This document shows, one piece after another, positions 10,808-28,186 of a stretch of DNA of 32,000 nt. Position numbers and translations under genes: made by a program. The stretch is taken from the NCBI RefSeq assembly GCF_005696695.1, contig NZ_CP040006.1, positions 630,001-662,000 of the forward strand. Direction: 5' to 3'. The stretch comes from Schaalia odontolytica. Its GTDB lineage: Bacteria; Actinomycetota; Actinomycetes; Actinomycetales; Actinomycetaceae. The notes below the pieces were generated by a model. That model ran no database searches. It saw only the letters and a list, made by a program, of their open reading frames with translations, and had not been told where the DNA came from. Each line of letters starts with the position of its first letter. The first letter of the stretch is position 1.

Positions 10808-11198
10808 CGTATTCCTCGTGTTGAAGGTGATTCAGTCTCAAGAATACTGGCCGTGTGGACTATTGTTAGCCCGGTCAGCATTGGTTACATGAGAACCTTA
10901 GTCCATGAACACTGACCGTGTCTCACGTTTGCGAAAAATCATTGAGGGAGTATTTCGCAACTTGCTGCAGGTGGGGATTAGTTGTCGTTTGTAAATGCGC
11001 GCCAACCTGGGCCTTTAGTCATGGGTGGTAATTGACAGGTGGATTCCGTCACGTGGCCGGGGGTGGGGTTTCTCCCAGTGCTGTGTCAGAGCAGGGAATT
11101 GGGCCGTGTACTCGCTACCCTCTAGAGTTGAAGCCATCCCCGACCCGGGGCGCTCGCCCCCGCGGCGGGCACGGCGCAGTTACACAAAAGGAAATCGT

Positions 11199-13565
11199 AT
11201 GACGCTGGATCTGACGCAGTCGCTGCCCTCTCACGTGCGCGCGACCTCTGGACGCCCCGTTGAAGATTCGACCCTGATGGAAGTGTGGCAGGGACTCTCC
11301 GCCGCAATCGTCGATCAGATCGCCGATAACTGGGCCGCCACCACGGAGCGTTACGCCAAGGGCCGTCAGGAACACTACTTCTCCGCCGAGTTCCTCATGG
11401 GTCGAGCCCTGCTCAACAACCTGTCGAACCTCGGCCTCGTCGAGAAGGCTCGCGAAGCCCTCGCCGCCTACGGCCTCGACCTCGGCCAGGTCCTCGAAGA
11501 GGAGCCGGATGCTGCCCTCGGTAACGGTGGCCTCGGCCGCCTCGCCGCCTGCTTCCTGGACTCCTGCGCCACCCTCGACCTGCCCGTGCGTGGCTACGGC
11601 ATCCTGTACCGCTACGGCCTGTTCAAGCAGCTCTTCGACAACGGCTTCCAGACCGAGCACCCGGATCCGTGGATGGAAGAGGGCTACCCCTTCGTCATCC
11701 GCCGCGAAGAGCGCTCCCGCATCGTCTCCTACGCCGACCTGACCGTGCGCGCCGTCCCCTATGACATCGCGATCACCGGCTACGGCACCAAGAACGTGGG
11801 CACCCTGCGCCTGTGGAAGGCGGAGCCCATCGAGGAATTCGACTACGACGCCTTCAACTCCCAGCGCTTCACCGACGCCATCGTCGACCGTGAGCGCACC
11901 ATGGACATCTCCCGCGTCCTGTACCCCAACGACACCACGTTCGAGGGCAAGGTCCTGCGCGTGCGCCAGCAGTACTTCTTCTGCTCCGCCTCCCTGCAGG
12001 AAATCGTCGCCAACTACGTGCGTCACCACGGCACCGACCTGACCGGCTTCGCCGAGTACAACGCCGTCCAGCTCAACGACACCCACCCGGTCCTCGCCAT
12101 CCCCGAGCTCATGCGCATCCTCATGGACGAGCATGGCCTCGGCTGGGAAGAGGCCTGGAAGGTCGTCTCCAAGACCTTCGCCTACACGAACCACACGGTT
12201 CTGGCCGAGGCCCTCGAGACCTGGGATATCCACATCTTTGATCGCCTGTTCCCGCGCATCGCCGAGATCGTCCGCGAGATCGACCGTCGCTTCCGCATCG
12301 ACATGGCCGAGCGCGGCCTCGACCAGGGCACCATCGACTACATGGCTCCTGTCGCCGGCAACACCGTGCGCATGGCTTGGATCGCCTGCTACGCGTCGTA
12401 CTCCATCAACGGCGTCGCCGCGCTCCACACGGAGATCATCAAGCGCGACACCCTCAAGGAATGGCACGCCATCTGGCCCGAGCGCTTCAACAACAAGACC
12501 AACGGCGTGACCCCGCGCCGCTGGCTCAAGCAGTGCAACCCCCGCCTGGCCGCCCTCCTCGACGAGGTCACCGGCTCCGACGCGTGGGTCCGTGACCTCA
12601 CCGAACTCTCCAAGTTCACCGAGGCCGGCACCGACGAGGTGCTCGAGCGCCTGGCCGAGATCAAGCACGCCAACAAGGTTGACTTCGCCGCGTGGGTCAA
12701 GGAGCGTGAGGGCGTCGAGATCGACCCCGACGCGATCTTCGACGTTCAGATCAAGCGTCTGCACGAGTACAAGCGTCAGCTGCTCAATGCCTTCTATGTC
12801 CTGGACCTGTACTTCCGCATGAAGGACGACCCGACGCTGGACACCCCCAACCGCGTGTTCATCTTCGGTGCGAAGGCTGCCCCCGGCTACATCCGCGCCA
12901 AGGCCATCATCAAGCTCATCAACGCCATCGCGGAGCTGGTGAACAACGACGAGGACATCAACGGCCGCATCAAGGTCGTCTTCGTCCACAACTACAACGT
13001 CTCGCCCGCCGAGCACATCATCCCCGCCGCCGACGTCTCCGAGCAGATCTCGATGGCCGGCAAGGAGGCCTCGGGCACGTCCAACATGAAGTTCATGATG
13101 AACGGCGCCCTCACTCTGGGCACCCTGGACGGCGCGAACGTTGAGATTCTCGAGGCCGTGGGCGACGAGAACGCCTACATCTTCGGCGCGACCGACGATG
13201 AGCTGCCCGAGCTGCGTCGCCACTACGACCCCCGTTGGCACTACGAGAACGTCCCCGGCCTCAAGCGCGTCATCGACGCCCTGACCGACGGCACGCTCGA
13301 CGACTCCAACTCCGGCTGGTTCCACGACATCCGCCACTCGATCCTCGAGGGCGGCTACGACCCGGCCGACGTGTACTACGTCCTCGGTGACTTTGCCGCG
13401 TACCGCGAGACCAAGGACCGCATGGCCGCCGACTACCGCGACCAGAAGGCCTGGAACGCTCGCGTGTGGGCGAACATCTCCCGCTCCGGCCGTTTCTCCT
13501 CGGACCGCACGATCTCCGACTACGCTCGCGAGGTCTGGCACATCGAGGGTGAGCCGATCGACTGA
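11199..13565 (+). CDS. glgP: Glycogen / maltodextrin phosphorylase (GT35)
   Basis: Start moved to the ATG at 11199, preceded by AAAAGGAAA, giving about 788 aa, the usual family length. PLP-lysine region EASGTSNMKFMMNGALTLGTLDGANVE. The upstream 58 codons of the track ORF are Arg/Pro-rich and non-homologous. Confidence 0.92.
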   Translation: MTLDLTQSLPSHVRATSGRPVEDSTLMEVWQGLSAAIVDQIADNWAATTERYAKGRQEHYFSAEFLMGRALLNNLSNLGLVEKAREALAAYGLDLGQVLEEEPDAALGNGGLGRLAACFLDSCATLDLPVRGYGILYRYGLFKQLFDNGFQTEHPDPWMEEGYPFVIRREERSRIVSYADLTVRAVPYDIAITGYGTKNVGTLRLWKAEPIEEFDYDAFNSQRFTDAIVDRERTMDISRVLYPNDTTFEGKVLRVRQQYFFCSASLQEIVANYVRHHGTDLTGFAEYNAVQLNDTHPVLAIPELMRILMDEHGLGWEEAWKVVSKTFAYTNHTVLAEALETWDIHIFDRLFPRIAEIVREIDRRFRIDMAERGLDQGTIDYMAPVAGNTVRMAWIACYASYSINGVAALHTEIIKRDTLKEWHAIWPERFNNKTNGVTPRRWLKQCNPRLAALLDEVTGSDAWVRDLTELSKFTEAGTDEVLERLAEIKHANKVDFAAWVKEREGVEIDPDAIFDVQIKRLHEYKRQLLNAFYVLDLYFRMKDDPTLDTPNRVFIFGAKAAPGYIRAKAIIKLINAIAELVNNDEDINGRIKVVFVHNYNVSPAEHIIPAADVSEQISMAGKEASGTSNMKFMMNGALTLGTLDGANVEILEAVGDENAYIFGATDDELPELRRHYDPRWHYENVPGLKRVIDALTDGTLDDSNSGWFHDIRHSILEGGYDPADVYYVLGDFAAYRETKDRMAADYRDQKAWNARVWANISRSGRFSSDRTISDYAREVWHIEGEPID

Positions 13566-13577
13566 CGCATTCGCGTA

Positions 13578-13620
13578 GGGGAGGCCCGGAACCGCACGGT
13601 TCCGGGCCTCCCTTGTTGTG
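13578..13620 (+). terminator. Intrinsic terminator of glgP
   Basis: GGGGAGGCCCGGAACCG pairs with CGGTTCCGGGCCTCCC (13578-13612), followed by TTGTTGTG. Confidence 0.7.
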
Positions 13621-13655
13621 TCAAGGCGTGTGGGTGTATCACCATGCGACCCAAC

Positions 13656-13713
13656 TGTATTAGTGGGTTGACACAGTTAGGTATCTGTGTCATTGTATTA
13701 GTGTATTAATACA
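13656..13713 (+). promoter_or_regulatory. Promoter plus repeated operator half-sites upstream of the GntR/YtrA regulator
   Basis: This is the only AT-rich patch in the region. TGTATTAGTG occurs at 13656-13665 and again at 13694-13703. A perfect 12-bp palindrome TGTATTAATACA lies at 13702-13713. TTGACA (13668-13673), a 17-nt spacer and CATTGT (13691-13696) fit a promoter. AGGAGGGA RBS at 13721-13728. Confidence 0.5.
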
Positions 13714-13735
13714 GCAAGACAGGAGGGACGCGTCG

Positions 13736-14098
13736 ATGCGCATCGATGACACCCGCCCCATCTGGATCCAGCTGGCCGACAGCTTCCGCGCCCGTATCAC
13801 CGACGGCACGTGGAAGCCCGGCCAGAAGATCCCCTCCGTCCGCGACCTCGCCATCGAGGCCGGCACCAACCCCAACACCGTCCAGCGAGCCCTCGCCGCC
13901 CTCGACGACGAAGGACTGACCGTCCCCAAGCGGACAGCCGGACGGTATGTCGCCACCGACGACTCTGCGCTGCATGCCCTCCGCCAGGAGGACGCGCGCG
14001 CTGCGGCCGACGCCTTCATCCGCGCCTGCCGAGCCCTCGGCGTCGATGTTGAAGGTGCCCACGGCCTCGTCGATGAACGCTGGAACGCGGACCTGTAA
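13736..14098 (+). CDS. GntR-family transcriptional regulator, short YtrA subfamily
   Basis: 120 aa with the winged-HTH region KIPSVRDLAIEAGTNPNTVQRALAALDDEGL. Its short length and the downstream ABC genes are typical of YtrA-type modules. Confidence 0.85.
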   Translation: MRIDDTRPIWIQLADSFRARITDGTWKPGQKIPSVRDLAIEAGTNPNTVQRALAALDDEGLTVPKRTAGRYVATDDSALHALRQEDARAAADAFIRACRALGVDVEGAHGLVDERWNADL

Positions 14099-14116
14099 AC
14101 CAGGAGGACAACTCTC

Positions 14117-14845
14117 ATGACCACCCAACCCACAGGCGCTGCCGCGGCCGGCCCCGGCCTCGTCGAGGTCACCGGCCTGACGAAGAGCTACCGCTCGACC
14201 CCCGCCCTGCGCGACTACAACCTGAGCCTCGAGTCTGGCCACATCGTCGGCCTCATGGGCCCCAACGGCTGCGGCAAGACCACGCTGCTCAAGATCCTCG
14301 CCGGAGTCCTCTCCGACTATCAGGGCACCGTCACCATCGACGGGCACGCGCCCGGCGTTGCCACTAAGGCGATCGTCTCCTATCTGCCCGACGCCGACTT
14401 CCTGAACACCGACTGGACCGCTGCGGACGCCATCCGCGTCTACTCCACGTTCTTTGCTGACTTCGACGCCGACAAGGCCGCCTCGATGATCAACTTCTTC
14501 GGACTGCCCACCGACCGCCGCCTCGGCGAGATGAGCAAGGGCATGGGGGAGAAGCTCCAGATCAGCCTCATCATGTCCCGGCGCGCCCGCGTGTACCTGC
14601 TCGACGAGCCCATCAGCGGCGTCGATCCGGCGACTCGTGACGTCATCCTCGACGGCATCCTGCGCGAGTTCGACCCGGCCTCGCTGCTCATCATGTCCAC
14701 CCACCTCATTTCCGACATCGAGCATTTCGTCGACTACGCGCTCTTCATGAAGGACGGACAGGTCTTCCTGCAGGGCGACGCCGACGACCTGCGGGCCACC
14801 CACGGCGATTCCCTCGACGCCATCTTCCGGAAGGAGTACCGCTGA
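14117..14845 (+). CDS. ABC transporter ATP-binding protein
   Basis: Walker A GLMGPNGCGKTT, signature-like MSKGMGEKLQ, Walker B VYLLDEP. AGGAGG RBS. Confidence 0.9.
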   Translation: MTTQPTGAAAAGPGLVEVTGLTKSYRSTPALRDYNLSLESGHIVGLMGPNGCGKTTLLKILAGVLSDYQGTVTIDGHAPGVATKAIVSYLPDADFLNTDWTAADAIRVYSTFFADFDADKAASMINFFGLPTDRRLGEMSKGMGEKLQISLIMSRRARVYLLDEPISGVDPATRDVILDGILREFDPASLLIMSTHLISDIEHFVDYALFMKDGQVFLQGDADDLRATHGDSLDAIFRKEYR

Positions 14846-15657
14846 TGTACGCCAAACTGCTTGCCTACGAAATCCGGTCGCGCGCCGTGGCGGACGCGCG
14901 CTCCTTCGGGGCGTTCATCGTCACTATTGCCGTCGCGTCGGGAATCGTTGCCGCGGGGCTGCCGGGGATCAGCGGCTCCACCGCTGTCCTCGCCTACGCC
15001 CTCTGTTCTCTCACGCCGGTCGCCTGCGCGATCGCAGCGATGGCCGACTACTGGAAGACCCTGTATGGGCAGCGCGGCTACTTCACGATGAGCCTGCCGA
15101 TCTCCGGAAAGGTCATCTTCTGGGCAAAGAACACCCGCATCATGATTGAGTGCCTCCTGGCCCTCGTCCTGGCCGTCGGCGGAATCCTCGCCGTCGCTTC
15201 AGCCGCCGCGTGGAGCGACGGTATCAGCCTCGCCGAGTACACGGCCGGACCGCGTTCGCTCGTGGCCGGAGTTCCCACCTCCACCGTGGCCCTCATGATC
15301 GCCGTTCAGGTCATCCTGTCGATGTCCTGGGTCGTACAGGCCTGCGCCGCCATGACGATCGGCGCTGAAGGACGCTTCAACCACCTCGGCTTCGGCGCGC
15401 CCATCATCGGTTTCGTCCTGCTGTACATCGTGAACCAGGTGCTTTCCACGGTTGGCACGTTCTTCCTTCCGCTGTCCGTCACGACTGATGGCCACTTCTC
15501 CACAGAGATCATGTGGACCTCGTACCGCGCGACGATGGGAACCGACGGTCACCCGAACGTCATCGGCATCGGCTCCTATGTCCTCGTGCCCCTGTTCGCC
15601 CTGATCCTGGGCGTGTGGGCCTCCCGCTCGATTGAGAAGCACACGTCCTTGCGCTGA
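14845..15657 (+). CDS. ABC exporter membrane component (ABC-2-like, no recognisable family motif)
   Basis: 270 aa with about 6 hydrophobic segments. Its ATG overlaps the ATPase stop by 1 nt (TGATG). The function is inferred from operon position. Confidence 0.65.
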   Translation: MYAKLLAYEIRSRAVADARSFGAFIVTIAVASGIVAAGLPGISGSTAVLAYALCSLTPVACAIAAMADYWKTLYGQRGYFTMSLPISGKVIFWAKNTRIMIECLLALVLAVGGILAVASAAAWSDGISLAEYTAGPRSLVAGVPTSTVALMIAVQVILSMSWVVQACAAMTIGAEGRFNHLGFGAPIIGFVLLYIVNQVLSTVGTFFLPLSVTTDGHFSTEIMWTSYRATMGTDGHPNVIGIGSYVLVPLFALILGVWASRSIEKHTSLR

Positions 15658-15679
15658 TGGTGTGATGCGCTGAGGGGCA

Positions 15680-15720
15680 GGCGGCGGTGGGATAGGGTTG
15701 TTGCATCCGATCCCGCCGCC
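15680..15720 (+). terminator. GC-rich hairpin after the ABC operon
   Basis: GGCGGCGG-T-GGGAT (15680-15693) pairs with ATCCC-GCCGCC (15710-15720). No T-tract follows. Confidence 0.4.
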
Positions 15721-15742
15721 GACTTGTCCGTGAGGAGCGCTT

Positions 15743-16732
15743 ATGACCGCTGGAGGACCGCAGTTTAGCGCCACACCCCAGAATCCCGACCTGCTGCGGT
15801 GGGTCGGCATTCAGGTCCTGCTGCTCGTGATCGCATGGATGATCGGCGTGGTCGTGCGCCGCCTCCTGGCTTCGCGCATGACGATGTCCACGGCCTCGGC
15901 GACCCTCACCGGCCTCGGGGGCCTGTGGGGCGGCCTGCTGGTCGCAGGCTGGATCTTCTCGTCCTCCGACACGTGGCGTCCCGCGATGATCGGCGTGGCC
16001 GCCCTGGTGGCCGCCATCGTGGTCGTTATTGTCTCCCTGATCGTCGCCTACCTGCATCCGCGCCCCGGCCTTGAGCCCATCGCCGAGGTCGCCAAGCGCG
16101 GCGAATCCGACTCCCTCGAATTCAAGTCCAGCGCCCGCTGGAACATGCGCGCCGGCAAGCGCGACGACGCCATGGAAACCGTCATCGCGAAGACGGTCGC
16201 CGCGTTCATGAACTCCGGCGGCGGCACCCTCCTCATCGGCGTCGACGACGACGGGCGCCTCATTGGTCTGGGCCCCGACTACGCGACCCTCAAGACCCCG
16301 GACGCCGACCGCTTCGAGCTGTGGATCCGCGACCTGTGGGGCCAGCGCCTGGGCACCAACGCGGCCGCGCTGCCCCTCCTCGACTTCGCCGAGGCCTCGG
16401 ACCCCCAGGAGGGCTACGAGCGTCAGGAGGTGTGTCGGGTGACGATCCCGCCGTCCACGCGCCCCGTGTATCTCAAGGGCCCCAAGGGTAAGGGCGAGGC
16501 CGAGCTGTGGGTGCGCGTCGGCAACTCGACGCGGCGCCTCGAGGTCGCCGACGCCGTGCAGTACGTGGCCACGCGCTGGCCCGAATCTGTGCGCGTTTCG
16601 CCGCTGACTCGCATCCGCCTGTTCCTCACCATGACCCGCCACCGCGACACCCCCACCCGCCTGCCGCGCGTCGTCGAGCGCGTCCTCACGGAGCGCGCGA
16701 AGCACGGTGTCGGGGTGTCTGAGGGGGAGTGA
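15743..16732 (+). CDS. Membrane-anchored AlbA_2 (Schlafen-like / divergent AAA_4) domain protein
   Basis: 329 aa with GAGGAG RBS. Three N-terminal hydrophobic helices (LLRWVGIQVLLLVIAWMIGVVV, GLGGLWGGLLVAGWIF, AMIGVAALVAAIVVVIVSLIVAYL). These are followed by motifs I recognise from AlbA_2 domains: ESDSLEFKSS, AFMNSGGGTLLIGVDDDGRLIGL, LWVRVGNSTRRL. It lacks the C-terminal HATPase/HTH region usual in bacterial AlbA_2 proteins. Confidence 0.75.
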   Translation: MTAGGPQFSATPQNPDLLRWVGIQVLLLVIAWMIGVVVRRLLASRMTMSTASATLTGLGGLWGGLLVAGWIFSSSDTWRPAMIGVAALVAAIVVVIVSLIVAYLHPRPGLEPIAEVAKRGESDSLEFKSSARWNMRAGKRDDAMETVIAKTVAAFMNSGGGTLLIGVDDDGRLIGLGPDYATLKTPDADRFELWIRDLWGQRLGTNAAALPLLDFAEASDPQEGYERQEVCRVTIPPSTRPVYLKGPKGKGEAELWVRVGNSTRRLEVADAVQYVATRWPESVRVSPLTRIRLFLTMTRHRDTPTRLPRVVERVLTERAKHGVGVSEGE

Positions 16733-16864
16733 GCCGGGCTGTTCTGCGAAGCGGAGCTGGCGGTGGCGTGGGTGCGTTTGAACCCTGTTCTTGTCGAGAC
16801 GGATTTGCCCGACGTGGGGCGGTGAGTGGGCTAGGTGTAAAGCTCGCGGCGGTACACTGTGAGC

Positions 16865-17779
16865 ATGGGTAAACGAATTCTTGGGTGGCTGCGGCAAAGG
16901 CGAGTTGCAGTGATGTATGGAGTGTTATGGTGTTTCTCGTTCTTCGTTATCGCAGTGTTTTTTCATAAAACTCTCACTGATATCGCGCATCGTGCTGATG
17001 GGGAGATTGCTGAAGCCTGCGTGGTGATGTATGTGATTTCTGTTGTTCTCAGTGTGGCTTACGTTTTCTTCGGATTGTCGATTCGCCAGGGGAAACGACG
17101 TCTTTGTGTGACTATGCAATTGCTGGCATTTGCCATACTTGTGACAATATTTCGCTCTGTGTTTGATGTGCTTGGTGGTGAGGGGCTTGCGTTTTCCATT
17201 GGAACACCTACTTCTGGAGTAGTATCGGTCTATGAAGTGTTCTTTATGTGGGCGCTTTTTCTTGTGGGGGTAGGAATTCAAATTACTTTGATCTCCAATG
17301 AAGCTCGACGTGCTGAAATGAATATGCTTCATGGTGGAGTTCTTGTTATCGTAGGTATTCTGCTGCCTAAAATGCTCGATTCCTATTCACTGCTTCGTGC
17401 TCACTGCTACGAGGTGCAATGTGGTAATGGTGAGCTCGGTAGTATCGTGCTATTTGAAATGGCTGTCTCCTACGCTGCTGCTCTAGCTGTAATGTTCGTG
17501 TTTGGGATCGTCTCTCCTTCTATTCGTACTTCTATACGCAGAATTACTGGAGAAAATGAATTTGAATGCGTAATGCATTCTGATGATGTTCCACATCATT
17601 GTGATCATCCCGCCGCTTTTTGCGTAGAAAAGGAATCGTTTGACAAGAGTGCATTGGCAGGCTCTTCCACCGGCTTAAGTGGTGTTGCTCTATCCAAGCA
17701 GCTGATGAGTGCTGTTGTTGGTGGTCTCGTCGCCGGCGCGTGTTTCTCGGTTGTGAACCGTCTCTTCAGTCGCCGCTGA
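16865..17779 (+). CDS. Orphan polytopic membrane protein encoded in low-GC DNA (no family recognised)
   Basis: An uninterrupted reading frame of over 900 nt, unlikely by chance in DNA where my 60-nt hand counts gave 50%, 40% and 33% G+C. The neighbouring gene gave 75%. At least 6 hydrophobic segments, a Cys/His-rich tail (HCYEVQCGNGE, FECVMHSDDVPHHCDHPAAFC) and a C-terminal hydrophobic helix. There is no SD sequence. TACACT (16853-16858) lies 6 nt before the ATG at 16865, consistent with a leaderless mRNA. Alternative starts are GTG 16859 and ATG 16910. Confidence 0.6.
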   Translation: MGKRILGWLRQRRVAVMYGVLWCFSFFVIAVFFHKTLTDIAHRADGEIAEACVVMYVISVVLSVAYVFFGLSIRQGKRRLCVTMQLLAFAILVTIFRSVFDVLGGEGLAFSIGTPTSGVVSVYEVFFMWALFLVGVGIQITLISNEARRAEMNMLHGGVLVIVGILLPKMLDSYSLLRAHCYEVQCGNGELGSIVLFEMAVSYAAALAVMFVFGIVSPSIRTSIRRITGENEFECVMHSDDVPHHCDHPAAFCVEKESFDKSALAGSSTGLSGVALSKQLMSAVVGGLVAGACFSVVNRLFSRR

Positions 17780-17832
17780 ACTGCGTTGCCTTGCACTTTG
17801 ACTGGTGAATCGAGGAGTGTTCCCACATTGTG

Positions 17833-18000
17833 GCTTGTTACTAAGTGGTGTTACACCACTTAGCGGGGTATTACACCAGCTCGGAGGTGGTGTAATGCTC
17901 CCTAACTGGTGTAATGCTCCCTAACTGGTGCAGGGCTGTCTGCTGCGGCTCGGTTGGACGCTAGTTGGAGCTACTACGGAGTAGCTCTTACCGCGACGGA
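17833..18000 (+). repeat. Macro-unit A (168 bp)
   Basis: Perfect hairpin CTAAGTGGTG-TTA-CACCACTTAG (17841-17863). Hairpin GGGGTATTACACCAGC / GGTGGTGTAATGCTCC (17865-17901). Perfect 19-bp tandem duplication TGGTGTAATGCTCCCTAAC (17888-17906 and 17907-17925). Closing word TGGTGCAGGGCTG. Tetraloop hairpin at 17967-17988. Confidence 0.8.
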
Positions 18001-18168
18001 GCTTGTTGGACAGTGGCATTGCACTAGTTAGCGCAGCGTTGCACTGGATAGTAGGCAGTGTAATGCCCTCCTATCTAGTGCATTGCTGTCGTATCTAGTG
18101 CAGTGCTGCGCGGCCCGGGCCTGTTAGTTGTTTGCGGAGGACGTTGCGACGTCCGGTTCCATAACGAT
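18001..18168 (+). repeat. Macro-unit B (168 bp)
   Basis: Forward words TTGCACTAG (18019) and TTGCACTGG (18039). Reverse words AGTGTAATGCC (18057), CTAGTGCAT (18075) and CTAGTGCAG (18095). A 20-bp direct repeat TATCTAGTGCAnTGCTG occurs twice. Tetraloop hairpin GGACGT-TGCG-ACGTCC at 18139-18154. Confidence 0.8.
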
Positions 18169-18316
18169 GCTTGTTACCGATGAGGCGGTGCACCCGATCC
18201 GTAGGCATTACACCCCTTCTGATCGGGTGTATCGCGACGGATCGGGTGCAGCGCTGCCTGGCCAGGACCTGTCGTACGCCGGCATGTGCAGTGTCAGCGA
18301 GGATACCCACGTCCAA
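18169..18316 (+). repeat. Macro-unit C (148 bp, one micro-unit shorter than A and B)
   Basis: GCGGTGCACCCGATCC (18185-18200) pairs at 15 of 16 positions with GGATCGGGTGCAGCGC (18239-18254). There is an inner arm pair TACACCC / GGGTGTA. The closing word GGTGCAGCGCTG is shared with A and B. Confidence 0.75.
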
Positions 18317-18430
18317 GCTTGTTACTGATGAGGTGTTGCACCCGATCGGGAAGATTCAACCCGATCAGAAAGGGTTGAACCTTCCCCAACGGGTTGAATG
18401 TTCCCGATCAGGTTGAATCTTGTCGCGCCC
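18317..18430 (+). repeat. Macro-unit D (terminal and more diverged)
   Basis: The first 31 nt are nearly identical to unit C (GCTTGTTACyGATGAGG..TGCACCCGATC). They are followed by ATTCAACCCGATC (18354-18366) and three reverse copies: GGGTTGAAC, CGGGTTGAATG and GATCAGGTTGAAT (18406-18418). Confidence 0.7.
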
Positions 18431-18444
18431 TGAGGTCCCAAACA

Positions 18445-18482
18445 GGGGAGGGGCCCAAGCCTCTCGGCTCGGACCCCTCCTC
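18445..18482 (-). terminator. Terminator of the DEAD-box helicase gene
   Basis: GGGGAGGGGCC (18445-18455) pairs with GGACCCCTCC (18471-18480). On the minus strand the hairpin is followed by TGTTTGGG. It lies 30 nt after the minus-strand stop. Confidence 0.55.
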
Positions 18483-18511
18483 ACGTCACATCAACGCAGC
18501 GCGCTATCGCC

Positions 18512-20278
18512 TCACTCGCCGCCCTTGCGGCGGCGGATGCGCTTGCGGGCGCGGGGCGCGCCCTCAGGTGCCTCACCCGAACGCTGCGAGTGCTCGCCGC
18601 GGCCACGGCCACGCGTGCCGCGGTCAGAGCGGCCGCCCTTGCCGGCGTTCAGCGTGCGATCGCCGTCTTGGGAGCCTCGACGCGACCCGCGCGAACGCGA
18701 CGCGTCGGAGGAAGCAGCCGAACCACCACGCGACGAACGACCGCGGCCGCCACGCGAGCCACCACGCGAGCCACCGGAACCCGAACGCGAGCCGCCACGG
18801 CCTCGTCCCTCGGAACGGGGAGCGGAGCCGCCCAGGTCCTCGAGGACCTCGGCGTCCAGGCCTGCGCGCGTGCGCTTGGCGCGCGGCAGACGACCGGTCG
18901 TGCCCTCCGGGATATCCAGGTCGGTGAACAGGTGGGGGGAGGTGTGGTAGGTCTCGAGCGGATCCGGCACGCCCAGGCCCAGTGCCTTGGAGATGAGCGA
19001 CCAGCGCGGCGTGTCGTCCCAGTCGACGAAGGTGACGGCCGTGCCCGAGTTGCCCGCGCGGCCCGTGCGGCCGATGCGGTGGATGTAGATCTTCTCGTCT
19101 TCGGGGCACTGGTAGTTGATGACGTGCGTGACGTCGTCGACGTCGATGCCTCGCGCGGCGACGTCGGTGGCGACCAGGACGTCGACCTTGCCGTTACGGA
19201 AGGCACGCAGAGCCTGCTCGCGGGCGCCCTGGCCCAGATCGCCGTGCAGTGAGCCGACCGCGAAGCCGCGGGCGGTCAGGTCCTCGCCCAGGCGGGCGGC
19301 GGTGCGCTTGGTGCGGCAGAAGATGACGGTGCGTCCGCGCCCCTCGGCCTGGAGGATGCGGGAGACGACCTCCACCTTGTTCATGGCGTGAACACGGTAG
19401 ATGACCTGCTTGACCGTGTTGACGGTCTGGTTCTGGTCGTCGGGATCCTGCGCGCGGATGTGGGTCGGCTGGACCATGAAGCGGCGGGCGAGGGCCACGA
19501 CGGGGCCGGGCATGGTCGCGGAGAACAGCATGGTGTGGCGGTTCTCGGGGACACGGCTGAGCAGCGTCTCGACGTCGGGCAGGAAGCCCAGGTCGAGCAT
19601 CTCGTCGGCCTCGTCGAGGACGACGGTCTCCACGCCGGACAGGTGCAGGTGGCCCTTGCGCAGCAGGTCGATGAGGCGGCCGGGCGTGCCCACGACGATG
19701 TCTGCGCCACGCTGGAGGGCCTCGATCTGGGGCTCGAAGGCGACGCCGCCGTAGATTTCGACGATGCGGGTCGACAGGTACTTGGCGGCCTCGCGCAGGT
19801 CCTGGGCGACCTGCTTGGTGAGCTCGCGGGTCGGCAGGATGATGAGCGCCTGCGGCTTGTTCGGGTTGAGGAGGTCCTCGTAGCCCTCTTCGTCGGGCGC
19901 GATGACGTCCTCGAGGACGGGGATGCCGAAGCCGAGGGTCTTGCCGGTGCCGGTCTTGGCCTGGCCGATGATGTCGTGGCGGTCCAGCGCGGGGCCGAGG
20001 GTGAGGGCCTGGATCGGGAAGGGGTGCGTGATGCCCTTGTCTTCGAGGGCGTCGACGATCGGGTCGGTGACGCCGAAGTCCGCGAAAGACTTCTTGTCGA
20101 GGTCCTCGCCCTTGCCGGTGATGTCCGGGGTGGCATCTTCGACCTCGGGGGCTGCGGGCTTGATGTTGCCGAGGCGGACGACGCCTGCGGAGTATTCGAC
20201 GGACGAGGCCGGGGTGGCCTTCTCGGTGGCGTCAACGTCGGTGGTGGGCACAGTTGCCTCAGTGCTCGTGTTGGTCAC
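18512..20278 (-). CDS. rhlE: DEAD-box ATP-dependent RNA helicase with an Arg/Gly/Ser-rich C-terminal tail
   Basis: 588 aa with a GTG start. Q motif ..HPFPIQ, motif I AKTGTGKT, Ia PTRELT, II VLDEADEM, III SAT, VI HRIGRTGRAG. The tail reads RGRGGSRSGSGGSRGGSRGGRGRSSRGG. The symbol is assigned by analogy to mycobacterial Rv3211. Confidence 0.92.
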   Translation of the reverse strand: MTNTSTEATVPTTDVDATEKATPASSVEYSAGVVRLGNIKPAAPEVEDATPDITGKGEDLDKKSFADFGVTDPIVDALEDKGITHPFPIQALTLGPALDRHDIIGQAKTGTGKTLGFGIPVLEDVIAPDEEGYEDLLNPNKPQALIILPTRELTKQVAQDLREAAKYLSTRIVEIYGGVAFEPQIEALQRGADIVVGTPGRLIDLLRKGHLHLSGVETVVLDEADEMLDLGFLPDVETLLSRVPENRHTMLFSATMPGPVVALARRFMVQPTHIRAQDPDDQNQTVNTVKQVIYRVHAMNKVEVVSRILQAEGRGRTVIFCRTKRTAARLGEDLTARGFAVGSLHGDLGQGAREQALRAFRNGKVDVLVATDVAARGIDVDDVTHVINYQCPEDEKIYIHRIGRTGRAGNSGTAVTFVDWDDTPRWSLISKALGLGVPDPLETYHTSPHLFTDLDIPEGTTGRLPRAKRTRAGLDAEVLEDLGGSAPRSEGRGRGGSRSGSGGSRGGSRGGRGRSSRGGSAASSDASRSRGSRRGSQDGDRTLNAGKGGRSDRGTRGRGRGEHSQRSGEAPEGAPRARKRIRRRKGGE

Positions 20279-20489
20279 GATCTACCTTGTCTCCCGGGCT
20301 TTTCCGGGGTTGGGGTCGGTGCCGATCGCGCATTATCTGGCGCGGGGAAACTCGTCCGCGCGTAGGTGTTATGTCTCAAGAATGCGACCGGTCTTCCGGT
20401 GGTCACCTTTCAGTGTAATGGTGTGTGACGAGTTCGCGGGGGAGGGGCTGGTCACAGAGACTGCCGACAATCGCGAAGAACAGGGTTCC

Positions 20490-21161
20490 ATGCACCGGGC
20501 CGCGAGGCTTGTCAGGCACTATGCTGGAGTCATGGCACACGAGTTTGAATCCGTCCCCGCCGACGACGCCGAAGTCCTTGGTATTCTCGCCTATTCGTCG
20601 CTCGCGTTTATGACGCGCCTGGCGAAGGACGGCGAGCAGGCCCCCACGTTCGAGGCTCACGTGGAGCATGCGCGCATGGCCGCGCAGTGCTTCAAGCTCT
20701 ACCAGCAGCTGGAGGTGTGGAGTGCGCACCGCCGCTTTGATCTGCTGGCGGCTGGTGATGCGTTCTCGGGCGCGTACGACGATCTGGATGCGCGCACGCG
20801 TCCGACGACGTTCGCGGAGCGCGCTGTCAAGACGTTTATTACCCGCGGCATGCTGGGCGACATGCTGATCCGCGTCGCGCAGGTGCACGGCCTGTTCGAG
20901 GGCATCGAGGACGTGTGGCCCTTCGAGCAGGGGCACTGGGTGCGCGCACACCTGGGCCCGCAGATTGAGGCTGACGAGCAGCTGTCGGCGCGCCTGTCCC
21001 TGTGGGGTCGCCGTGTGGCGGGCGAGGCCCTCGGCCTGGTGCGCGCGACGCTGTTCACCTACCCGTCGCTGGCTGCGTCCCCGGAAAACGTCGATGAGAT
21101 CACGGAGTACGTGATTAAGCGCCACGGGGAGCGCATGAAGGACATTCACCTGAAGGCCTGA
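20490..21161 (+). CDS. Conserved actinobacterial protein, probably the ferritin-like-fold family found divergent from rhlE (Rv3210c-like)
   Basis: This is the real C-terminal part of the track ORF 19902-21161; the first ~160 codons are antisense to the helicase gene. Candidate starts are 20382, 20418, 20490 and 20532, and the choice is uncertain. The helical, acidic composition and the gene position match my recollection of this family. There is no diagnostic motif I can verify by eye. Confidence 0.55.
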   Translation: MHRAARLVRHYAGVMAHEFESVPADDAEVLGILAYSSLAFMTRLAKDGEQAPTFEAHVEHARMAAQCFKLYQQLEVWSAHRRFDLLAAGDAFSGAYDDLDARTRPTTFAERAVKTFITRGMLGDMLIRVAQVHGLFEGIEDVWPFEQGHWVRAHLGPQIEADEQLSARLSLWGRRVAGEALGLVRATLFTYPSLAASPENVDEITEYVIKRHGERMKDIHLKA

Positions 21162-21176
21162 GGCCACAGGGTATAG

Positions 21177-21233
21177 ACGAGGCCGGGGTTCCTCGGGCGG
21201 TATCGCGACCGCTCGGGTTCCCCGGCCTCGTTC
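21177..21233. terminator. Bidirectional hairpin terminator between convergent genes
   Basis: GACGAGGCCGGGG (21177-21189) pairs with CCCCGGCCTCGTT (21220-21232). It sits between the stops at 21161 (+) and 21247 (-). Confidence 0.65.
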
Positions 21234-21246
21234 GTCTGGGCGCGAA

Positions 21247-21474
21247 TCAGTGGATCGCGAAGCCGACGCGGCGCTCGGTCTTGGCGGCGATCTGCACGTA
21301 TGCGAGGGCGTGGGCGGGCACGATGGTGCGCTGGCCCTTGGTGTCGGTGAGGTCGAGGACGCCGTTGGTGGCGGCAAGGGCCTCGTGAACCTTGGCCATG
21401 AGCTCGCTTTCGGTCATGTCGACGTCGAGACCGAGCTGACGCGTGTTGTCGCGGATGCCGATGAAGATCTCCAT
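21247..21474 (-). CDS. DUF3107 protein (homologue of mycobacterial TB9.4 / Rv3208A)
   Basis: 75 aa, MEIFIGIRDNTRQLGLDVDMTESELMAKVHEAL...VGF. AAGGAG RBS. The size, the N-terminal ME(I/V)xIGI pattern and the position next to adnA fit the family. Confidence 0.8.
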   Translation of the reverse strand: MEIFIGIRDNTRQLGLDVDMTESELMAKVHEALAATNGVLDLTDTKGQRTIVPAHALAYVQIAAKTERRVGFAIH

Positions 21475-21552
21475 GATGACTCCTTGCTGGTAAATATCGT
21501 CATGGCCATCATATGTGCCGCAGATGTGGGTGGGGTCTGCGAGTATTGCGTT

Positions 21553-24500
21553 ATGAGCGAAATTCAGGTCAGGTTGCGCAGCCGCAGCGCCGATTGGTGG
21601 CGTCTGCCGGAGCTGAACGCGCGCCAGCGTGCGGTTGTGGACGCGGTGCGCTTGGGTGACGTGATTGCGCGCGGCGCCCCGTCCTCAGGCCGCTCGACGT
21701 GTGCCCTGGCCGTCTTCGAGGAGGCGGCCTCCCAGGGCCGCTCCGCGCTTATTCTCGCTCCCGATCGCACGCGCGCCGACGTGCTGACCCCGCGCGCGCA
21801 GGCGCTTGGCCCGGATTCGGTGCGCCCGGTGCGTACCCCCGCCTCTTTTGCCTATCAGGTGGTGGCTACGTGGCGCACCCAGCGCGACGTGCCGTTGGAG
21901 GGGGTCGAGCTGGTGACGGGCGCGGCTCAGGACCAGATGCTCGCCGAGGCCCTGGAGTCCGTGGAGGCACCGTGGCCCGAGGACATTGGCCCGCAGATGC
22001 GCGCGATGCCGGCGTTCCGCGCGGAGTTGCGCAACCTGGTGGCCCGCGCGGGCGAGGCCGGGATGGACGCGTCCTCCCTGTCCGAGGCCGGGGCCCGGTT
22101 CGGCCGTCCGGAGTGGCAGGGCGCGGGCGCGATCATTGCTGCGCTGGAGGAGGGGCCCGAGCGTTCCCCGGAGTATCCGCGCACCCTGCGCGTGGACCTG
22201 TCGCGTATCCAGGCGCTCGCGGCCGATCTGATCGACGCGTGGGAGCAGGACGCGCCGAAGCGCGGCGTGCAGGCGCCGTGCCCGGTGCCCGACGTGGTGA
22301 TCATCGATGACCTGCAAGATTGCACGCCTTCGACGCTGAGGCTGCTGGAGGCCTGCCGCGACGCGGGTGCCCGGATCGTCGCCTTCTCGGATTCCGACGT
22401 GGCCGTGGCTGGGTATCGCGGCGGCGAGCCGCACATGGACCGCAGGCTTGCCAGTGCTCTTGGTGTCGAGATCGCTGAGCTGGGCCAGGTCTACGACATG
22501 TCCCGCGCCGTGCGGGAGCTGGCGCGCCAGGCATGCGCGCGCATCGCCCAGTCCGGATCGCCCGCCCGGCGCGAGGCCGACGTTGCGGACGATGCTCCTG
22601 AGGGCACTTTGGTGACCCACTTGGGCGCCACGCCCTCGCAGATGGGGGCCCTCATCGCGCGTGCCCTGCGGGCCCACCACCTGCATGATGGCATCGACTT
22701 TTCGGAGCAGGTTGTCATCGTGCGCAGCTCCTCGATGGTCGCCGAGACACGTCGCTACCTGGAGCGCGGCGGCGTGCCCGTCGCGGGAGGCAGTCGCGCC
22801 TTCGACTTTGCAACACAGCCGACCACGCGCCTGCTCCTGGACCTCGTGACCATGCCGACGGGCCAGAGCGACACGGACGTGGCCGTGCGCCGCGAACTCG
22901 CCGAGCGCCTCCTGCCTTCGCCCCTCGTGCGCGCCGACGCGCTCGCGGTCCACCGGCTGCTGCGCCGCCTGAACGCCGCACGCGCCCAGGCCGCGGAGCA
23001 GGCCGGAGACGAGACCGCGCCGATCCCGCTGACGGCTGCCGACCTTGTCAGTGACCCGCAGGCGTGGAGGCCTGTCATCGAGCAGGCCGAGCAGGCCGGC
23101 GGCAAACGGGCCCGCGCCGCCGCAATGCTCGCGCGCCCACTCGAGACCGCCGCGCGCCTGTGGGAGCTGGGTATGAGCGGGAGTGCGCGCCCCCAGGAGC
23201 GCTTGTGGTCCCTGTGGGAGGCGTCCGGGGTGGCCAGCGAGTGGCGCTCGCGGGCCATCGCCTCGGATGACTCGTCGGGCTGGTACGACGATCAGCTGGA
23301 CGCCGTCGTGGCGCTCCTGCGCGTGGCCGACGTGTGGGAGCAGCGCAACCCCGCCGGCTCCGCCGTGGGCTTCGCATCGGAGCTGCTGGCCGGCTCGGTC
23401 CCCATCGACACGATTTCACGCGTGGGCGTGCGCCCGGGCGGCGTCGAGGTCCTCACCCCCGCGCAGGCGATGGGTCGCCACTGGCAGGTCGTCGTCCTCG
23501 CTGGCCTGCAGGATGGGGCATGGCCGAACCTGCGCCTGCGCGACCGGATCCTGCGCGCTGACCTTCTCGCGGACGTGGGTGCGGGCCGCGTCGCCGTGGG
23601 CGAGGATGGGCGCGAGGAGCTCATCGACTCGACGAGGGCAGCTCGGCGCGCGGTGACGGACGACGAGTATCGCCTCTTCGTCGCGGCCGTGACGCGCTCG
23701 CGCAGCATCGTGCACGCCGGTGCGGTGCGCTCGGAGGACGCCGCGCCTTCGGTCTTCTTCGATCTGGTTGCGCGCCTGGCGGGCACGCATCGAGAAAATG
23801 ACATTGTGCCGGTGGATTCGGTGGAGGCACCGCTGTCCCTGTCCGGTCACATCGCGGACCTGCGGGCGCGCGCGGCGAACCCTGACGATCCGGCCGACGC
23901 TCAGCTTGCCGCCACTCTGTTGGCTCTGATGGCGCGCGAAGACGTACTCTCTGCGCAGCCGCAGCGGTGGCTGGGGGCGGGCGGTACGCCCACGACTGAC
24001 GCGGAGTACGCGGGTGAGCTCACGCTGTCTCCCTCGCAATTCGAGCGCGCGCTGGCGTGCCCGCTGCGCTGGTTCCTCACTACGATCGGAGCGGATGGCC
24101 CATCGAACGCGGCAGCCAGCCTCGGTACCCTGATTCACGCCGTGGCCGAGGAACACCCGCACGGCACGCCGGAGGAACTCACCGAGGCACTCGAGGCTCG
24201 CATCGAGGAGCTGGGCTACAACCTGGACACGTGGGCGGGGCGTGTCGCCGACCGGCACGCCCGCGACATCGTGAACAACCTGGCCTCCTACGTCGTCGGC
24301 GTACCCGGTGAGGTCACGGTGGAACAGACGGTGTCGGCCGAGGTTGAGGGCGTGACCATCCGGGGCCGGATGGACCGCCTCGAGCACGTCGACGAGGGGG
24401 TGCGCGTCACCGACCTGAAGACCGGAAAGAGCGGATATTCGGCGAAGACCGTCCCCGATAATCCGCAGCTGGCGGCGTACCAGATGGCCTTGCTTGCCTC

Positions 24501-24738
24501 GGGCGAGAGGGTCGCGGGAGCGCGCATTGCCCTGCTTGGCGACGATAAGCTGAAGTATTTCGATCAGCCGCGCCTTGAGGGGCAGGCCCTGGAGGATTGG
24601 CACGATAAGCTCCGCTCAGTCGCGGTGGATGCGAGAGGCCCCTACTTTGAGGCGCGTCCCTCGGATGCGGCCTGCGCGTACTGTTCTTTCGATCGGCTGT
24701 GCCCGGCACGCGAGCGTGGCCACAAGGTGGTGGAGTGA
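21553..24738 (+). CDS. adnA: AdnA-type helicase-nuclease subunit (UvrD-like motor with degenerate Walker A, plus a RecB-family nuclease with a 4-Cys cluster)
   Basis: Start placed at the ATG at 21553 (MSEIQVRL..), because the track ORF's first 101 codons are antisense to DUF3107. Motif I reads GAPSSGRST (Arg in place of Lys), motif II reads VVIIDDLQD, motif VI reads VAAVTRSR. Nuclease motifs are GRMDRLEH..VRVTDLKTGK and QLAAYQ. Cysteines: ALACPLRW and, at the C-terminus, CAYCSFDRLC. Confidence 0.85.
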   Translation: MSEIQVRLRSRSADWWRLPELNARQRAVVDAVRLGDVIARGAPSSGRSTCALAVFEEAASQGRSALILAPDRTRADVLTPRAQALGPDSVRPVRTPASFAYQVVATWRTQRDVPLEGVELVTGAAQDQMLAEALESVEAPWPEDIGPQMRAMPAFRAELRNLVARAGEAGMDASSLSEAGARFGRPEWQGAGAIIAALEEGPERSPEYPRTLRVDLSRIQALAADLIDAWEQDAPKRGVQAPCPVPDVVIIDDLQDCTPSTLRLLEACRDAGARIVAFSDSDVAVAGYRGGEPHMDRRLASALGVEIAELGQVYDMSRAVRELARQACARIAQSGSPARREADVADDAPEGTLVTHLGATPSQMGALIARALRAHHLHDGIDFSEQVVIVRSSSMVAETRRYLERGGVPVAGGSRAFDFATQPTTRLLLDLVTMPTGQSDTDVAVRRELAERLLPSPLVRADALAVHRLLRRLNAARAQAAEQAGDETAPIPLTAADLVSDPQAWRPVIEQAEQAGGKRARAAAMLARPLETAARLWELGMSGSARPQERLWSLWEASGVASEWRSRAIASDDSSGWYDDQLDAVVALLRVADVWEQRNPAGSAVGFASELLAGSVPIDTISRVGVRPGGVEVLTPAQAMGRHWQVVVLAGLQDGAWPNLRLRDRILRADLLADVGAGRVAVGEDGREELIDSTRAARRAVTDDEYRLFVAAVTRSRSIVHAGAVRSEDAAPSVFFDLVARLAGTHRENDIVPVDSVEAPLSLSGHIADLRARAANPDDPADAQLAATLLALMAREDVLSAQPQRWLGAGGTPTTDAEYAGELTLSPSQFERALACPLRWFLTTIGADGPSNAAASLGTLIHAVAEEHPHGTPEELTEALEARIEELGYNLDTWAGRVADRHARDIVNNLASYVVGVPGEVTVEQTVSAEVEGVTIRGRMDRLEHVDEGVRVTDLKTGKSGYSAKTVPDNPQLAAYQMALLASGERVAGARIALLGDDKLKYFDQPRLEGQALEDWHDKLRSVAVDARGPYFEARPSDAACAYCSFDRLCPARERGHKVVE

Positions 24739-24757
24739 CGTGGAAAAGGACAGAGCG

Positions 24758-27700: not shown

Positions 27701-28186
27701 GCCGCGCTCGCCGGCGGTGACGACGCGGCGGACGAGGCCCTGCTGACGGACGGTGAGCGCGAGCGCCTGGAGCGGCTGCGCGCGAACTTCCGCGCCTTTG
27801 TCGCGAACGAGCTGTCGGACTACCGGGCCGTCGCGATCGAGGAGGCCTTCTCGGTGGAGGTAGGCGGCGTGTCCGTCCAGGGCCGCATCGACGCCGTGTT
27901 CGAGCGCGTGCGCGGCGATGGTCCCCGCTACCTGGTCGTCGACTGGAAGAGCGGACGCCCGGTGACCGCCACGACCAAGCCGGACAAGGTCGCGTACTTC
28001 GTGACTCAGCTGCGCCTGTACCAGCGCGCGTGGGCGACCCGCATGGGCGTGGATGCATCCGAGGTGGGCGCGATGGTCGCCTTCCTGGCGGGCCCCTCGC
28101 ACCACACGCTCGAGAGCCTCGAGGCCATGCTGGGGACGGGGGCGTCGTCCCTGGACGAGGCGCTGCGCCATGTTTTGGATTTTTAA
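24758..28186 (+). CDS. adnB: AdnB-type helicase-nuclease subunit (active UvrD/PcrA-like motor plus RecB-family nuclease)
   Basis: Start at the ATG at 24758, preceded by AAGGA 8 nt upstream; GTG 24740 is an alternative. Walker A AGAGSGKT, motif II LLDEFQDTS, motif V TVHGSKGLEWD, motif VI YVAMTRAR. Nuclease motifs are GRIDAVF..LVVDWKSGR and QLRLYQ. The nuclease domain has no cysteines. Confidence 0.9.
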   Translation: MNLGALQIQAIVDATKTPTPEQVRVVEAPRRPLLVVAGAGSGKTETMSMRVLWLLANHPDLTPSSILGLTFTRKAAGELGERLRERIRLLSREMPQLRERLDEDPVALTYNSFAERIVSEHGMRIGIDPDFSMLSEAGAIDLMTQIVESWPTDLDDELTPAGVVGKVLHLAGEIAEHGYTVERAREVLEEFGRELEQVGRGNKESRKAMDVNSRRIAFLGPIAAYQQRKREMGVLDFSDQLVLATRIVREAPAVRASLREEFRAVLLDEFQDTSVIQMDLLSMLFADHAVTAVGDPNQAIYGWRGASASSLESFLDRFQTGETEERQTLTLSTAWRNDVSILDAANRVAAPLREVPSFQVGKQQLKAQSPVLVPRGGAGPGAVDIAFTQDYDEALGAMVDFVQRVRSKPVKDGKRRSVAVLSRQRRDFPLIDDALREAGIPTEIVGLGGLLDQPAVQDVRAALELAYDVEASPWLARLLAGIDLGAADLMALGDWARFLARQEGVNPHQAILLDAVDSPPKPGWAAEGRPAISEEAVRRVRLLAERLRQVREGVGRSITEQVERAILIMGTLDDVIADPLSMGGRAALDEFISVAAAYEQETPGASLGSFLAYLDMAEKREDGLDAPLGEPDPNAVQILTVHGSKGLEWDGVVVFGLADGSFPLHKSKSRPWTDDPPANKAWVTDAGSLPHPLRGDRADLPPFEFDVEGAKNPSTAFKQWLEGEYGASLGEHAEREERRLAYVAMTRARSAQLLVGSWTSGFNKKVTHPSRYLMDASAQLFEHTPGASSGTVGAIEDPQMWSNGRWRDHAVKSSVGEGRCLMMPVPQAEEGSEQGAVARVFETFPQAPGPSRQRVAAAAAAVQAQIDAMPQDQDVYEALAQLGDNPAVRDTVALIEEYHLSLETPVVDLWAERVPATSVSALLQDADEFARDMRRPMPTRPSSFSALGTAFHAWVERELHLASADPASEITAGNEVGAGEDAALAGGDDAADEALLTDGERERLERLRANFRAFVANELSDYRAVAIEEAFSVEVGGVSVQGRIDAVFERVRGDGPRYLVVDWKSGRPVTATTKPDKVAYFVTQLRLYQRAWATRMGVDASEVGAMVAFLAGPSHHTLESLEAMLGTGASSLDEALRHVLDF

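Follow-up and report, generated by a model that had tools for sequence, protein, structure and literature searches.

A probable family of dispersed, hairpin-forming extragenic repeats in the Schaalia odontolytica group

1. Introduction

Repetitive extragenic palindromic (REP), BIME and REPIN elements are mobilised by RAYT (Y1 HUH) transposases. In pneumococcus, BOX, RUP, SPRITE and insertion sequence (IS) elements are over-represented between convergent genes, a bias that has been taken to mean that parasitic elements are tolerated when they lie downstream of a gene, and BOX itself has boxA and boxC at its ends, enclosing boxB modules in tandem and in variable number, and can form a stem-loop (Croucher et al. 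2011, PMC3049150). Here we describe an array of four tandem repeat units, A to D, in a 32,000-nt stretch of chromosomal DNA of the actinobacterium Schaalia odontolytica (contig NZ_CP040006.1, positions 630,001 to 662,000), the whole of which is referred to below as the window. The array lies in a 730-bp gap between two convergent genes (Table 1). We consider it probable that the units are four tandem copies, one per subfamily, of a dispersed extragenic palindromic repeat that is confined to the Schaalia (Actinomyces) odontolytica group. This would be a REP/BIME- or BOX-like element that is apparently undescribed in the Actinomycetaceae, and full-text searches of the literature on Schaalia or Actinomyces in combination with intergenic repeats, extragenic palindromes or RAYT yielded no description of such a repeat family.

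2. Unit Architecture and Comparison with Known Repeats

The units are about 105–125 nt long and begin with a non-palindromic leader, CCGCG-N5-GCTTGTT, which is their most conserved feature across subfamilies and contexts, with an information content of 1.1–2.0 bits per position as against ~0–0.4 bits farther upstream. The leader is followed by a short reverse half-word (R0), two forward words of 19–20 nt (F1 and F2) and then 1–10 reverse words (R1, R2 and onwards). Three reverse words represent the mode, being found in 174 of 263 units, and the spacing between reverse words is 19 nt in 368 cases and 20 nt in 110. In subfamilies A to C the final reverse word ends in ...GGTGCAGCGCTGC and homology stops just beyond it. 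The build is composite, with a fixed leader and forward words on one side, a fixed terminal GGTGCAGCGCTGC word on the other and the variable reverse words between them. Two hairpin arrangements are available to a unit, F1/R2 nested around F2/R1, or R0/F1 together with F2/R1.

When the window was re-read, all of the words that an earlier note on this DNA had singled out were found at the coordinates given there, and its helices were recovered by a repeat search (17841-51/17853-63, 17865-82/17884-901 and 18185-202/18237-54, which are 100%, 83% and 94% complementary, respectively); the same search revealed nested arms of 34–40 nt in units B and D too. On alignment, the four units show a mean column identity of 68% and GCTTGTT is present at the start of each. 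The program TRF reported a 19-nt repeat in unit A (17888-17930; 2.3 copies, 100% identity). Unit C carries only two reverse words in the window, while the alignment shows one extra 19-nt reverse word in other species.

Judged by architecture, BOX of Streptococcus pneumoniae is the closest analogue of the Schaalia units. Both are dispersed intergenic composites with a variable short internal tandem module, both are predicted to yield a long stem-loop if transcribed, and both show an excess between convergent genes, frequent clustering with other repeat families and length variation between strains. The likeness is one of analogy only and extends to no sequence relationship. Moreover, the variable module of the Schaalia units is a hairpin arm (the reverse word) rather than a neutral insert, the units are without terminal inverted repeats, four stem subfamilies share a single conserved leader, and the host is a high-GC actinobacterium.

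With REP, BIME and REPIN elements (for definitions, see PMC2817692), the units share the properties of being extragenic, dispersed, clustered and hairpin-forming. They also resemble REP and REPIN elements in occurring as several classes per genome with compensatory stem differences and in carrying a short conserved motif 5' of the hairpin, and recognition as an ssDNA (single-stranded DNA) hairpin is plausible in both. By analogy, a conserved, single-stranded-looking leader combined with a subfamily-specific hairpin would follow the logic of REP/REPIN sequences recognised by RAYT. In contrast to REP and BIME, the Schaalia word is not a palindrome and the word order is forward-forward-reverse-reverse-reverse rather than alternating; in place of GTAG there is a CCGCG-N5-GCTTGTT leader, and no RAYT was found in the fetched loci. 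Miniature inverted-repeat transposable elements (MITEs), including Correia/NEMIS, RUP and ERIC, are like the units in being non-coding, dispersed and foldable, about 100–170 bp in size and tolerated downstream of genes, but in the Schaalia units neither terminal inverted repeats nor target-site duplications could be seen, and no related autonomous element was found. Strict definitions of REP, MITE and BOX each failed on at least one point, and the units are, for this reason, filed under the general kind and under no named family.

3. Dispersal over Unrelated Genomic Contexts

Evidence for a dispersed repeat came from scanning viral and metagenome catalogues with a degenerate pattern comprising the leader and the first two words. 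Matches were obtained in one contig of IMG/VR and in at least 120 contigs from metagenomes. With an nhmmer unit profile, at least 408 units were found in at least 147 loci, these totals being pooled over contigs and loci and not representing copies per genome; the units form arrays of 1–6, with opposed orientations in some of them. Among the matches listed, the unit-masked flanks of 121 viral and metagenome contigs fell into 27 similarity clusters, helicase, membrane-protein, malic-enzyme or Schlafen-domain genes were present on only about one quarter of the contigs, and all the units found were extragenic, lying in intergenic regions at every locus. Again among the matches listed, subfamilies A to D were each found in 9–14 contexts, with 14 for subfamily A and 9 for subfamily B, the IMG/VR contig included; hybrids and further subtypes also occur. 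The neighbours are unrelated housekeeping genes, encoding, among others, an HtrA-type protease, a chorismate-binding enzyme, lactate/malate dehydrogenase and diacylglycerol kinase, and, further, prephenate dehydratase, RNase H, PurU and ABC ATPases.

Gene orientation around the arrays was derived from a crude gene call based on GC3 (GC content of third codon positions). By this measure a convergent setting applies to 43 of 62 arrays and, where both neighbours were callable, to the arrays in 11 of 14 context clusters; only two arrays are in a divergent setting. Relative to the neighbouring genes, both orientations of the units occur. Away from the helicase locus, unit orientation bore no consistent relation to local GC skew, a measure of little reliability on contigs of 6–15 kb. 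At the orthologous helicase locus, 1–8 units are present per species. A single-locus element had also been considered, given that all units at 79 helicase-anchored genome loci lay 3' of the helicase gene in one orientation, and it was overturned by the metagenome scan.

Two consequences follow for the units in the window. Because each subfamily occurs in 9–14 contexts, the compensatory changes that distinguish A to D are not local in origin; they are differences between old subfamilies and not substitutions compensated at the present locus. And because the units are dispersed over at least ~20 contexts beside unrelated genes, they do not constitute a locus-specific RNA or switch.

Sequence conservation was compared among five species. 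Unit cores are 88–93% identical, with the exception of unit C for which the value is only 79% because word number differs between species, whereas the linkers of 40–60 nt and the spacer preceding the array are 58–64% identical, apart from the C-D linker at 88%.

4. Folding and Covariation

Folded as RNA, the units are more stable than dinucleotide-shuffled sequences on both strands, with z-scores of -4.3 to -6.6 and none of 200 shuffles as good, and DNA folds gave z-scores of -4.1 to -6.3. The RNA fold energies are -53.2 kcal/mol for unit A (z -4.3) and -64 kcal/mol for unit B (z -6.5), and the z-scores for units C and D are -5.1 and -5.6, respectively. Pairing between the leader and the sequence following the last word, which could provide a closing helix, showed no excess (5.38 compared with 5.43 ± 0.03 in permuted leader-tail pairs).

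The covariation analysis used 81 distinct units, collected at the orthologous locus in 25 related genomes and aligned; as these units share descent, the number of independent events corresponds to a handful of subfamily founders and not to 81 sequences. Unprompted, RNAalifold returned the nested F1/R2 and F2/R1 helices, with changes on both sides in 7 of 16 pairs. When the F2/R1 helix was specified it was 90.5% paired across the units. Two-sided changes occurred in 110 of its cells, whereas column shuffles gave 47.8 ± 5 and never reached this count (0/500); in every register to which the helix was slid the score was much lower. The two double substitutions between units A and B proposed in the earlier note were confirmed, A-T being replaced by G-C at pair 42-62 and C-G by T-A at pair 46-58. 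Inside subfamily C, pair 42-62 shows no covariation (A-T 7, A-C 11, G-T 3 and G-C 2).

Since pairing is conserved through compensatory change across subfamilies, some single-stranded hairpin state, either RNA or ssDNA, is very likely relevant to the element. The earlier note had attributed the concerted changes on the two arms to selection for base pairing, and this holds in so far as forward/reverse pairing is maintained by compensatory change across subfamilies; it does not extend to a locus-specific structured RNA or switch, the units being a dispersed repeat. In the mechanism that we envisage, the hairpin would be what the element needs in its single-stranded state, either as ssDNA during copying or mobilisation, in a REP/REPIN-like manner, or as RNA, at the 3' termini of transcripts from the adjacent genes, where it could act as a stabiliser or terminator of the REP/BOX type. 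The covariation among units A to D would then have been inherited from the subfamily founders rather than selected at the present locus, while word number would shift by slippage and arrays would change by unequal recombination. A more far-reaching version, to which we give rather little credence, is that the units are an actinobacterial counterpart of REPINs, in which leader and hairpin would be recognised by an ssDNA nuclease or transposase, possibly domesticated, with four co-existing specificity classes, or else that they form a multi-copy set of ~110-nt structured RNAs insulating convergent transcription units of their oral hosts.

The way in which the arms vary also bears on the idea that the words are double-stranded DNA (dsDNA) sites for a nucleoid-associated, gyrase or partition-like protein, two helical turns apart, their inversion mirroring the symmetry of an oligomer. 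Word spacing is a strict 19–20 bp, a core T(T/G)RCAC / GTGYA(A/T/G) is common to subfamilies A to C (TTCAAC / GTTGAA in D), and several proteins are reported to bind REP/BIME sequences (PMC2817692). Nevertheless, the subfamilies differ at several word positions and the arms change together, which fits pairing rather than a single recognition site, and no regulator, rep or par gene turns up regularly beside the units, such that we regard dsDNA sites as very improbable.

5. Tests for RNA Genes, Strand Preference and Switching

That the units are functional structured RNAs, either small RNAs (sRNAs) of ~110 nt or terminators, stabilisers or insulators in 3' untranslated regions, with one strand transcribed, is essentially the view of the earlier note widened to a multi-copy family, and we consider it unlikely. 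It would account for stems that survive compensatory change between subfamilies, for the very stable folds and for cores that are conserved relative to linkers, and units located just 3' of genes would fall within read-through 3' regions. Alternative pairings are also seen in silico, the frequency of the minimum free energy (MFE) structure being only 0.05–0.07 in the plus-strand folds of units A, B and D. The searches for signs of an RNA gene point the other way. At the gathering score, Rfam gave no match in the whole window, and at E values up to 10 it produced only chance-level miRNA-type matches in the region 17600-18700. A scan for sigma-70 promoters and terminators found no promoter in the array, and by eye no -10/-35 or ECF-type motif around the leader was consistent across subfamilies; the CCGCG leader apart, positions further upstream of the units carry no information. 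There are no U-tracts after the hairpins, and in the cases inspected, the helicase gene (18447-18480) and the left-hand gene of locus L126, a terminator hairpin belonging to the flanking gene itself lies between stop codon and unit. Moreover, the units occur in both orientations with no strand signal beyond composition, the number of reverse words is unconstrained over its range of 1–10, and inversion of a loop is tolerated without loss of the copy (Section 6).

The G-T pairs in the helices had earlier been taken as mildly favouring a plus-strand transcript, but base composition accounts for this preference. Plus-strand folds of units A to C do have the lower energies, yet the same is true of the plus-strand shuffles, and the minus strand gives z-scores that match those of the plus strand or lie below them. 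Single mismatches, counted in minimum-energy structures computed with no GU pairs for 261 unique units, comprised G-T 158, A-C 38, G-G 137, T-T 112, C-C 29 and A-A 18, and with ~214 G-T mismatches expected from composition this class is, if anything, under-represented. The asymmetry between G-T and A-C reflects an excess of G/T-rich reverse words and not selection for wobble pairs. Similarly, the surplus of reverse arms, earlier thought to permit mutually exclusive pairings as in a switch, is a length-variable, minisatellite-like micro-tandem of 19–20 nt in 1–10 copies with no downstream gene to switch; most units sit where two convergent genes end, and no gene follows them that they could regulate.

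Tandem structured RNAs, such as tandem riboswitches, the multi-copy sRNAs LhrC and Qrr, and ToxI-type arrays, are like the Schaalia units in showing tandem arrangement, conserved hairpins and covariation. They differ in that the Schaalia units lack a promoter, a terminator, an expression platform, a consistent downstream gene and an Rfam match, and in that the Schaalia family is dispersed in both orientations.

Several other candidates were considered and rejected. A cis-regulatory switch or independent sRNA gene was set aside on account of the convergent setting, the occurrence of both orientations and the lack of a promoter-like site, covariation itself having been found. For an integron attC array, no recombinase was found among the ten window open reading frames (ORFs) scanned at 11025-28186 and, although GTTRC starts the units, there is no inverse core at their end. 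An iteron origin or partition centromere would be consistent with the 19–20-bp phasing, but the neighbours are housekeeping genes and there is no plasmid or phage match. Sites of the parS/DnaA-box and Ter kinds, Tn7/Tn5053-type multi-site transposon ends, retron msd and type III antitoxin arrays were excluded by their context, by the absence of the partner genes that define them or by a motif mismatch.

6. DNA-Level Dynamics and Possible Mobility

The number and order of units at the orthologous locus vary between species. In addition, the F2/R1 loop of unit D (18363-18371) is exactly inverted, reading CAACCC-GATCAGAA-GGGTTG compared with CAACCC-(C/G)TTCTGATC-GGGTTG. The inversion was found in three of 118 C/D-type units, namely in the window, in L169 near 3253 and in L104 near 301, with the other 115 uninverted, and it is a DNA-level flip between inverted words.

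Such an exact inversion of a hairpin loop, as a DNA-level event between arms, is also what might be seen in a functionless family of tandem and segmental duplications, in which template switching and gene conversion (quasi-palindrome correction) at the DNA level would keep the inverted words similar, with no need for selection. The fast gain and loss of words and units, and the free mixing of A/G and T/C at pair 42-62 in subfamily C, are compatible with this. We nevertheless hold a neutral origin to be improbable, given that cores are far better conserved across species than the adjacent linkers, that the most conserved part, the non-palindromic leader, is beyond the reach of palindrome correction, and that spread to at least ~20 unlinked contexts requires a copying mechanism.

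A number of observations weigh against a dispersed, REP/BIME- or BOX-like repeat. A tblastn search for a Y1/HUH transposase in ~1.6 Mb of fetched loci, with an IS200 TnpA query, gave a best E value of 0.8, and no transposase was present among the nearest-neighbour genes in the 20 of 42 neighbour-protein clusters, together with L080, that were scanned. A search for filled and empty sites produced no clean pair with a target duplication, the two usable comparisons showing replaced sequence. The ends of a unit (CCGCG..GCTTGTT on the left and ..GTGCAGCGCTGC on the right) are not inverted copies of one another, and the 19–20-nt word is not self-complementary. Finally, unit cores are no better conserved than the third codon positions of the helicase gene (90–94%), and because they do not exceed this synonymous rate the case for constraint rests on the contrast with the adjacent intergenic DNA. 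No target-site duplication was seen in the flanks inspected, and comparison with phage and plasmid databases gave no similarity.

At some orthologous loci a malic-enzyme gene (549–564 aa) is located inside the array with units on both sides, at 8356-10005 in L001, 8710-10359 in L005 and 8887-10581 in L016, and likewise in L086, L118, L142, L168 and L174; the window, L013, L014, L022 and L057 lack it. This pattern suggests that recombination between repeat units has inserted or removed the gene. An ISL3-family transposase gene, absent from the window, lies by the membrane-protein gene about 1 kb from the array in L001 (Schaalia sp. ORNL0103; 12067-13443).

7. The Locus and Its Surroundings

The features of the array and the genes on either side of it are summarised in Table 1. 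The upstream membrane-protein ORF has a GC content of 46–50%, compared with ~66% for the window, and a Pfam search with it gave no matches. Its alleles at the same locus in other strains are 86–90% identical in some contigs and only 31–42% in many. A gene for a Schlafen AlbA_2-domain protein (15743-16732), two genes 5' of the array, is kept at the locus across strains, with 71–98% identity in metagenome contigs. The DEAD-box helicase on the other side is 98% identical to the copies of Schaalia sp. ORNL0103 and S. odontolytica UMB0018, and the region of its terminator-like hairpin is 91% conserved across species. A scan for tRNA and tmRNA genes found none.

Table 1. Positions in the window of the repeat units, their parts, the linkers and the flanking features.
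Feature	Position	Strand	Sequence or remarks
Membrane-protein ORF, upstream flanking gene	16859-17779	+	Stop 43 nt 5' of unit A
Unit A, subfamily A	17823-17946	+	nhmmer unit profile, 100 bits; 3 inverted repeats
Unit A, leader	17823-17839		CCACA-TTGTG-GCTTGTT
Unit A, R0/F1 hairpin	17841-17863
Unit A, forward words	17851-59, 17871-79		TTACACCAC/G
Unit A, forward word F2	17865-17882
Unit A, reverse words	17888-95, 17907-14		TGGTGTAA
Unit A, reverse word R1	17884-17906
Unit A, reverse word R2	17907-17925
Unit A, reverse word R3	17926-17946		...TGGTGCAGGGCTG
A-B linker	17947-17990		Mean pairwise identity 58% among 5 species; unit cores 88%
Unit B, subfamily B	17991-18116	+	Word TTGCACTAG; nhmmer unit profile, inverted repeat
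Unit B, leader	17991-18007		CCGCG-ACGGA-GCTTGTT
Unit B, nested 40-nt arms	18016-18055, 18067-18106
Unit B, forward words	18019-27, 18039-47		TTGCACTAG/TTGCACTGG
Unit B, reverse words	18075-83, 18095-103		CTAGTGCAT/CTAGTGCAG
B-C linker	18117-18158		Mean pairwise identity 59%; poorly conserved
Unit C, subfamily C	18159-18256	+	Word GTGCACCCGATCC; nhmmer unit profile, inverted repeats
Unit C, leader	18159-18175		CCATA-ACGAT-GCTTGTT
Unit C, arms	18185-18202, 18237-18254
Unit C, words within the arms	18187-200, 18239-52		GGTGCACCCGATCC versus GGATCGGGTGCAGC
C-D linker	18257-18306		Mean pairwise identity 88%
Unit D, subfamily D	18307-18425	+	Words TTGCACCCGATCGGG and ATTCAACCC; nhmmer unit profile, inverted repeats
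Unit D, leader	18307-18323		CCACG-TCCAA-GCTTGTT
Unit D, arms	18340-18373, 18380-18413
Unit D, words within the arms	18354-66, 18406-18		ATTCAACCCGATC versus GATCAGGTTGAAT
Unit D, F2/R1 loop	18363-18371		GATCAGAAA; inverted relative to nearly all other copies
Terminator-like hairpin of helicase gene, apart from repeat units	18447-18480	-	Inverted repeat, 15-nt arms
DEAD-box RNA helicase, downstream flanking gene, convergent	18512-20278	-	DEAD and Helicase_C domains

In other contexts, the intergenic spaces that carry the units resemble repeat "junkyards". A second, AT-richer repeat, not present in the window, is frequently situated a few hundred bases or less from the units and was seen at 16 loci, including L080 (10388-10500), L165 (3670-3685 and 10184-10199), L084, L088, L103, L124, L145, L149 and L152; the copy in L080 is complete at ~110 bp and is bounded by the inverted repeat AATTTCGCACGTAATT. 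Clusters of the words GGATAGGTTAT / ATAACCTATCCGC, in both orientations, adjoin units in L138 (~13800-13910), L187, L124 and L127, and might represent iteron-like or DnaA-box-like sites or else a further repeat family. A GC-rich segment, CCGGCCAGGCCCTGCCGCCGCCCAC, recurs upstream of units in L080 (two copies), L138, L187 and L124 and appears to be yet another short dispersed repeat.

The same repeat units were also encountered in GTDB records assigned to Sanguibacter keddieii 250_SKED (L005), Xylanimonas cellulosilytica 352_XCEL (L007) and Trueperella pyogenes 331_TPYO (L025). The helicase loci of these three records are 96%, 96% and 77% identical, respectively, to that of the Schaalia window, and the records are probably mislabelled or contaminated.

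8. Significance

Covariation between neighbouring repeats, even where it is convincing, need not point to an RNA gene, since a selfish or structural repeat family can produce it. What appears to be undescribed here is a hairpin-forming intergenic repeat family in the Actinomycetaceae, the object itself being of an ordinary kind. S. odontolytica is the model host of the epibiont TM7x. Such repeats are of use in strain typing and act as markers of recombination hot spots, of which the coming and going of the malic-enzyme gene in the array is an instance here; they can also mislead genome assembly and the prediction of sRNAs. Discovery of a mobilising enzyme or of a role as RNA would extend REP/REPIN-type biology to the high-GC Gram-positive bacteria.

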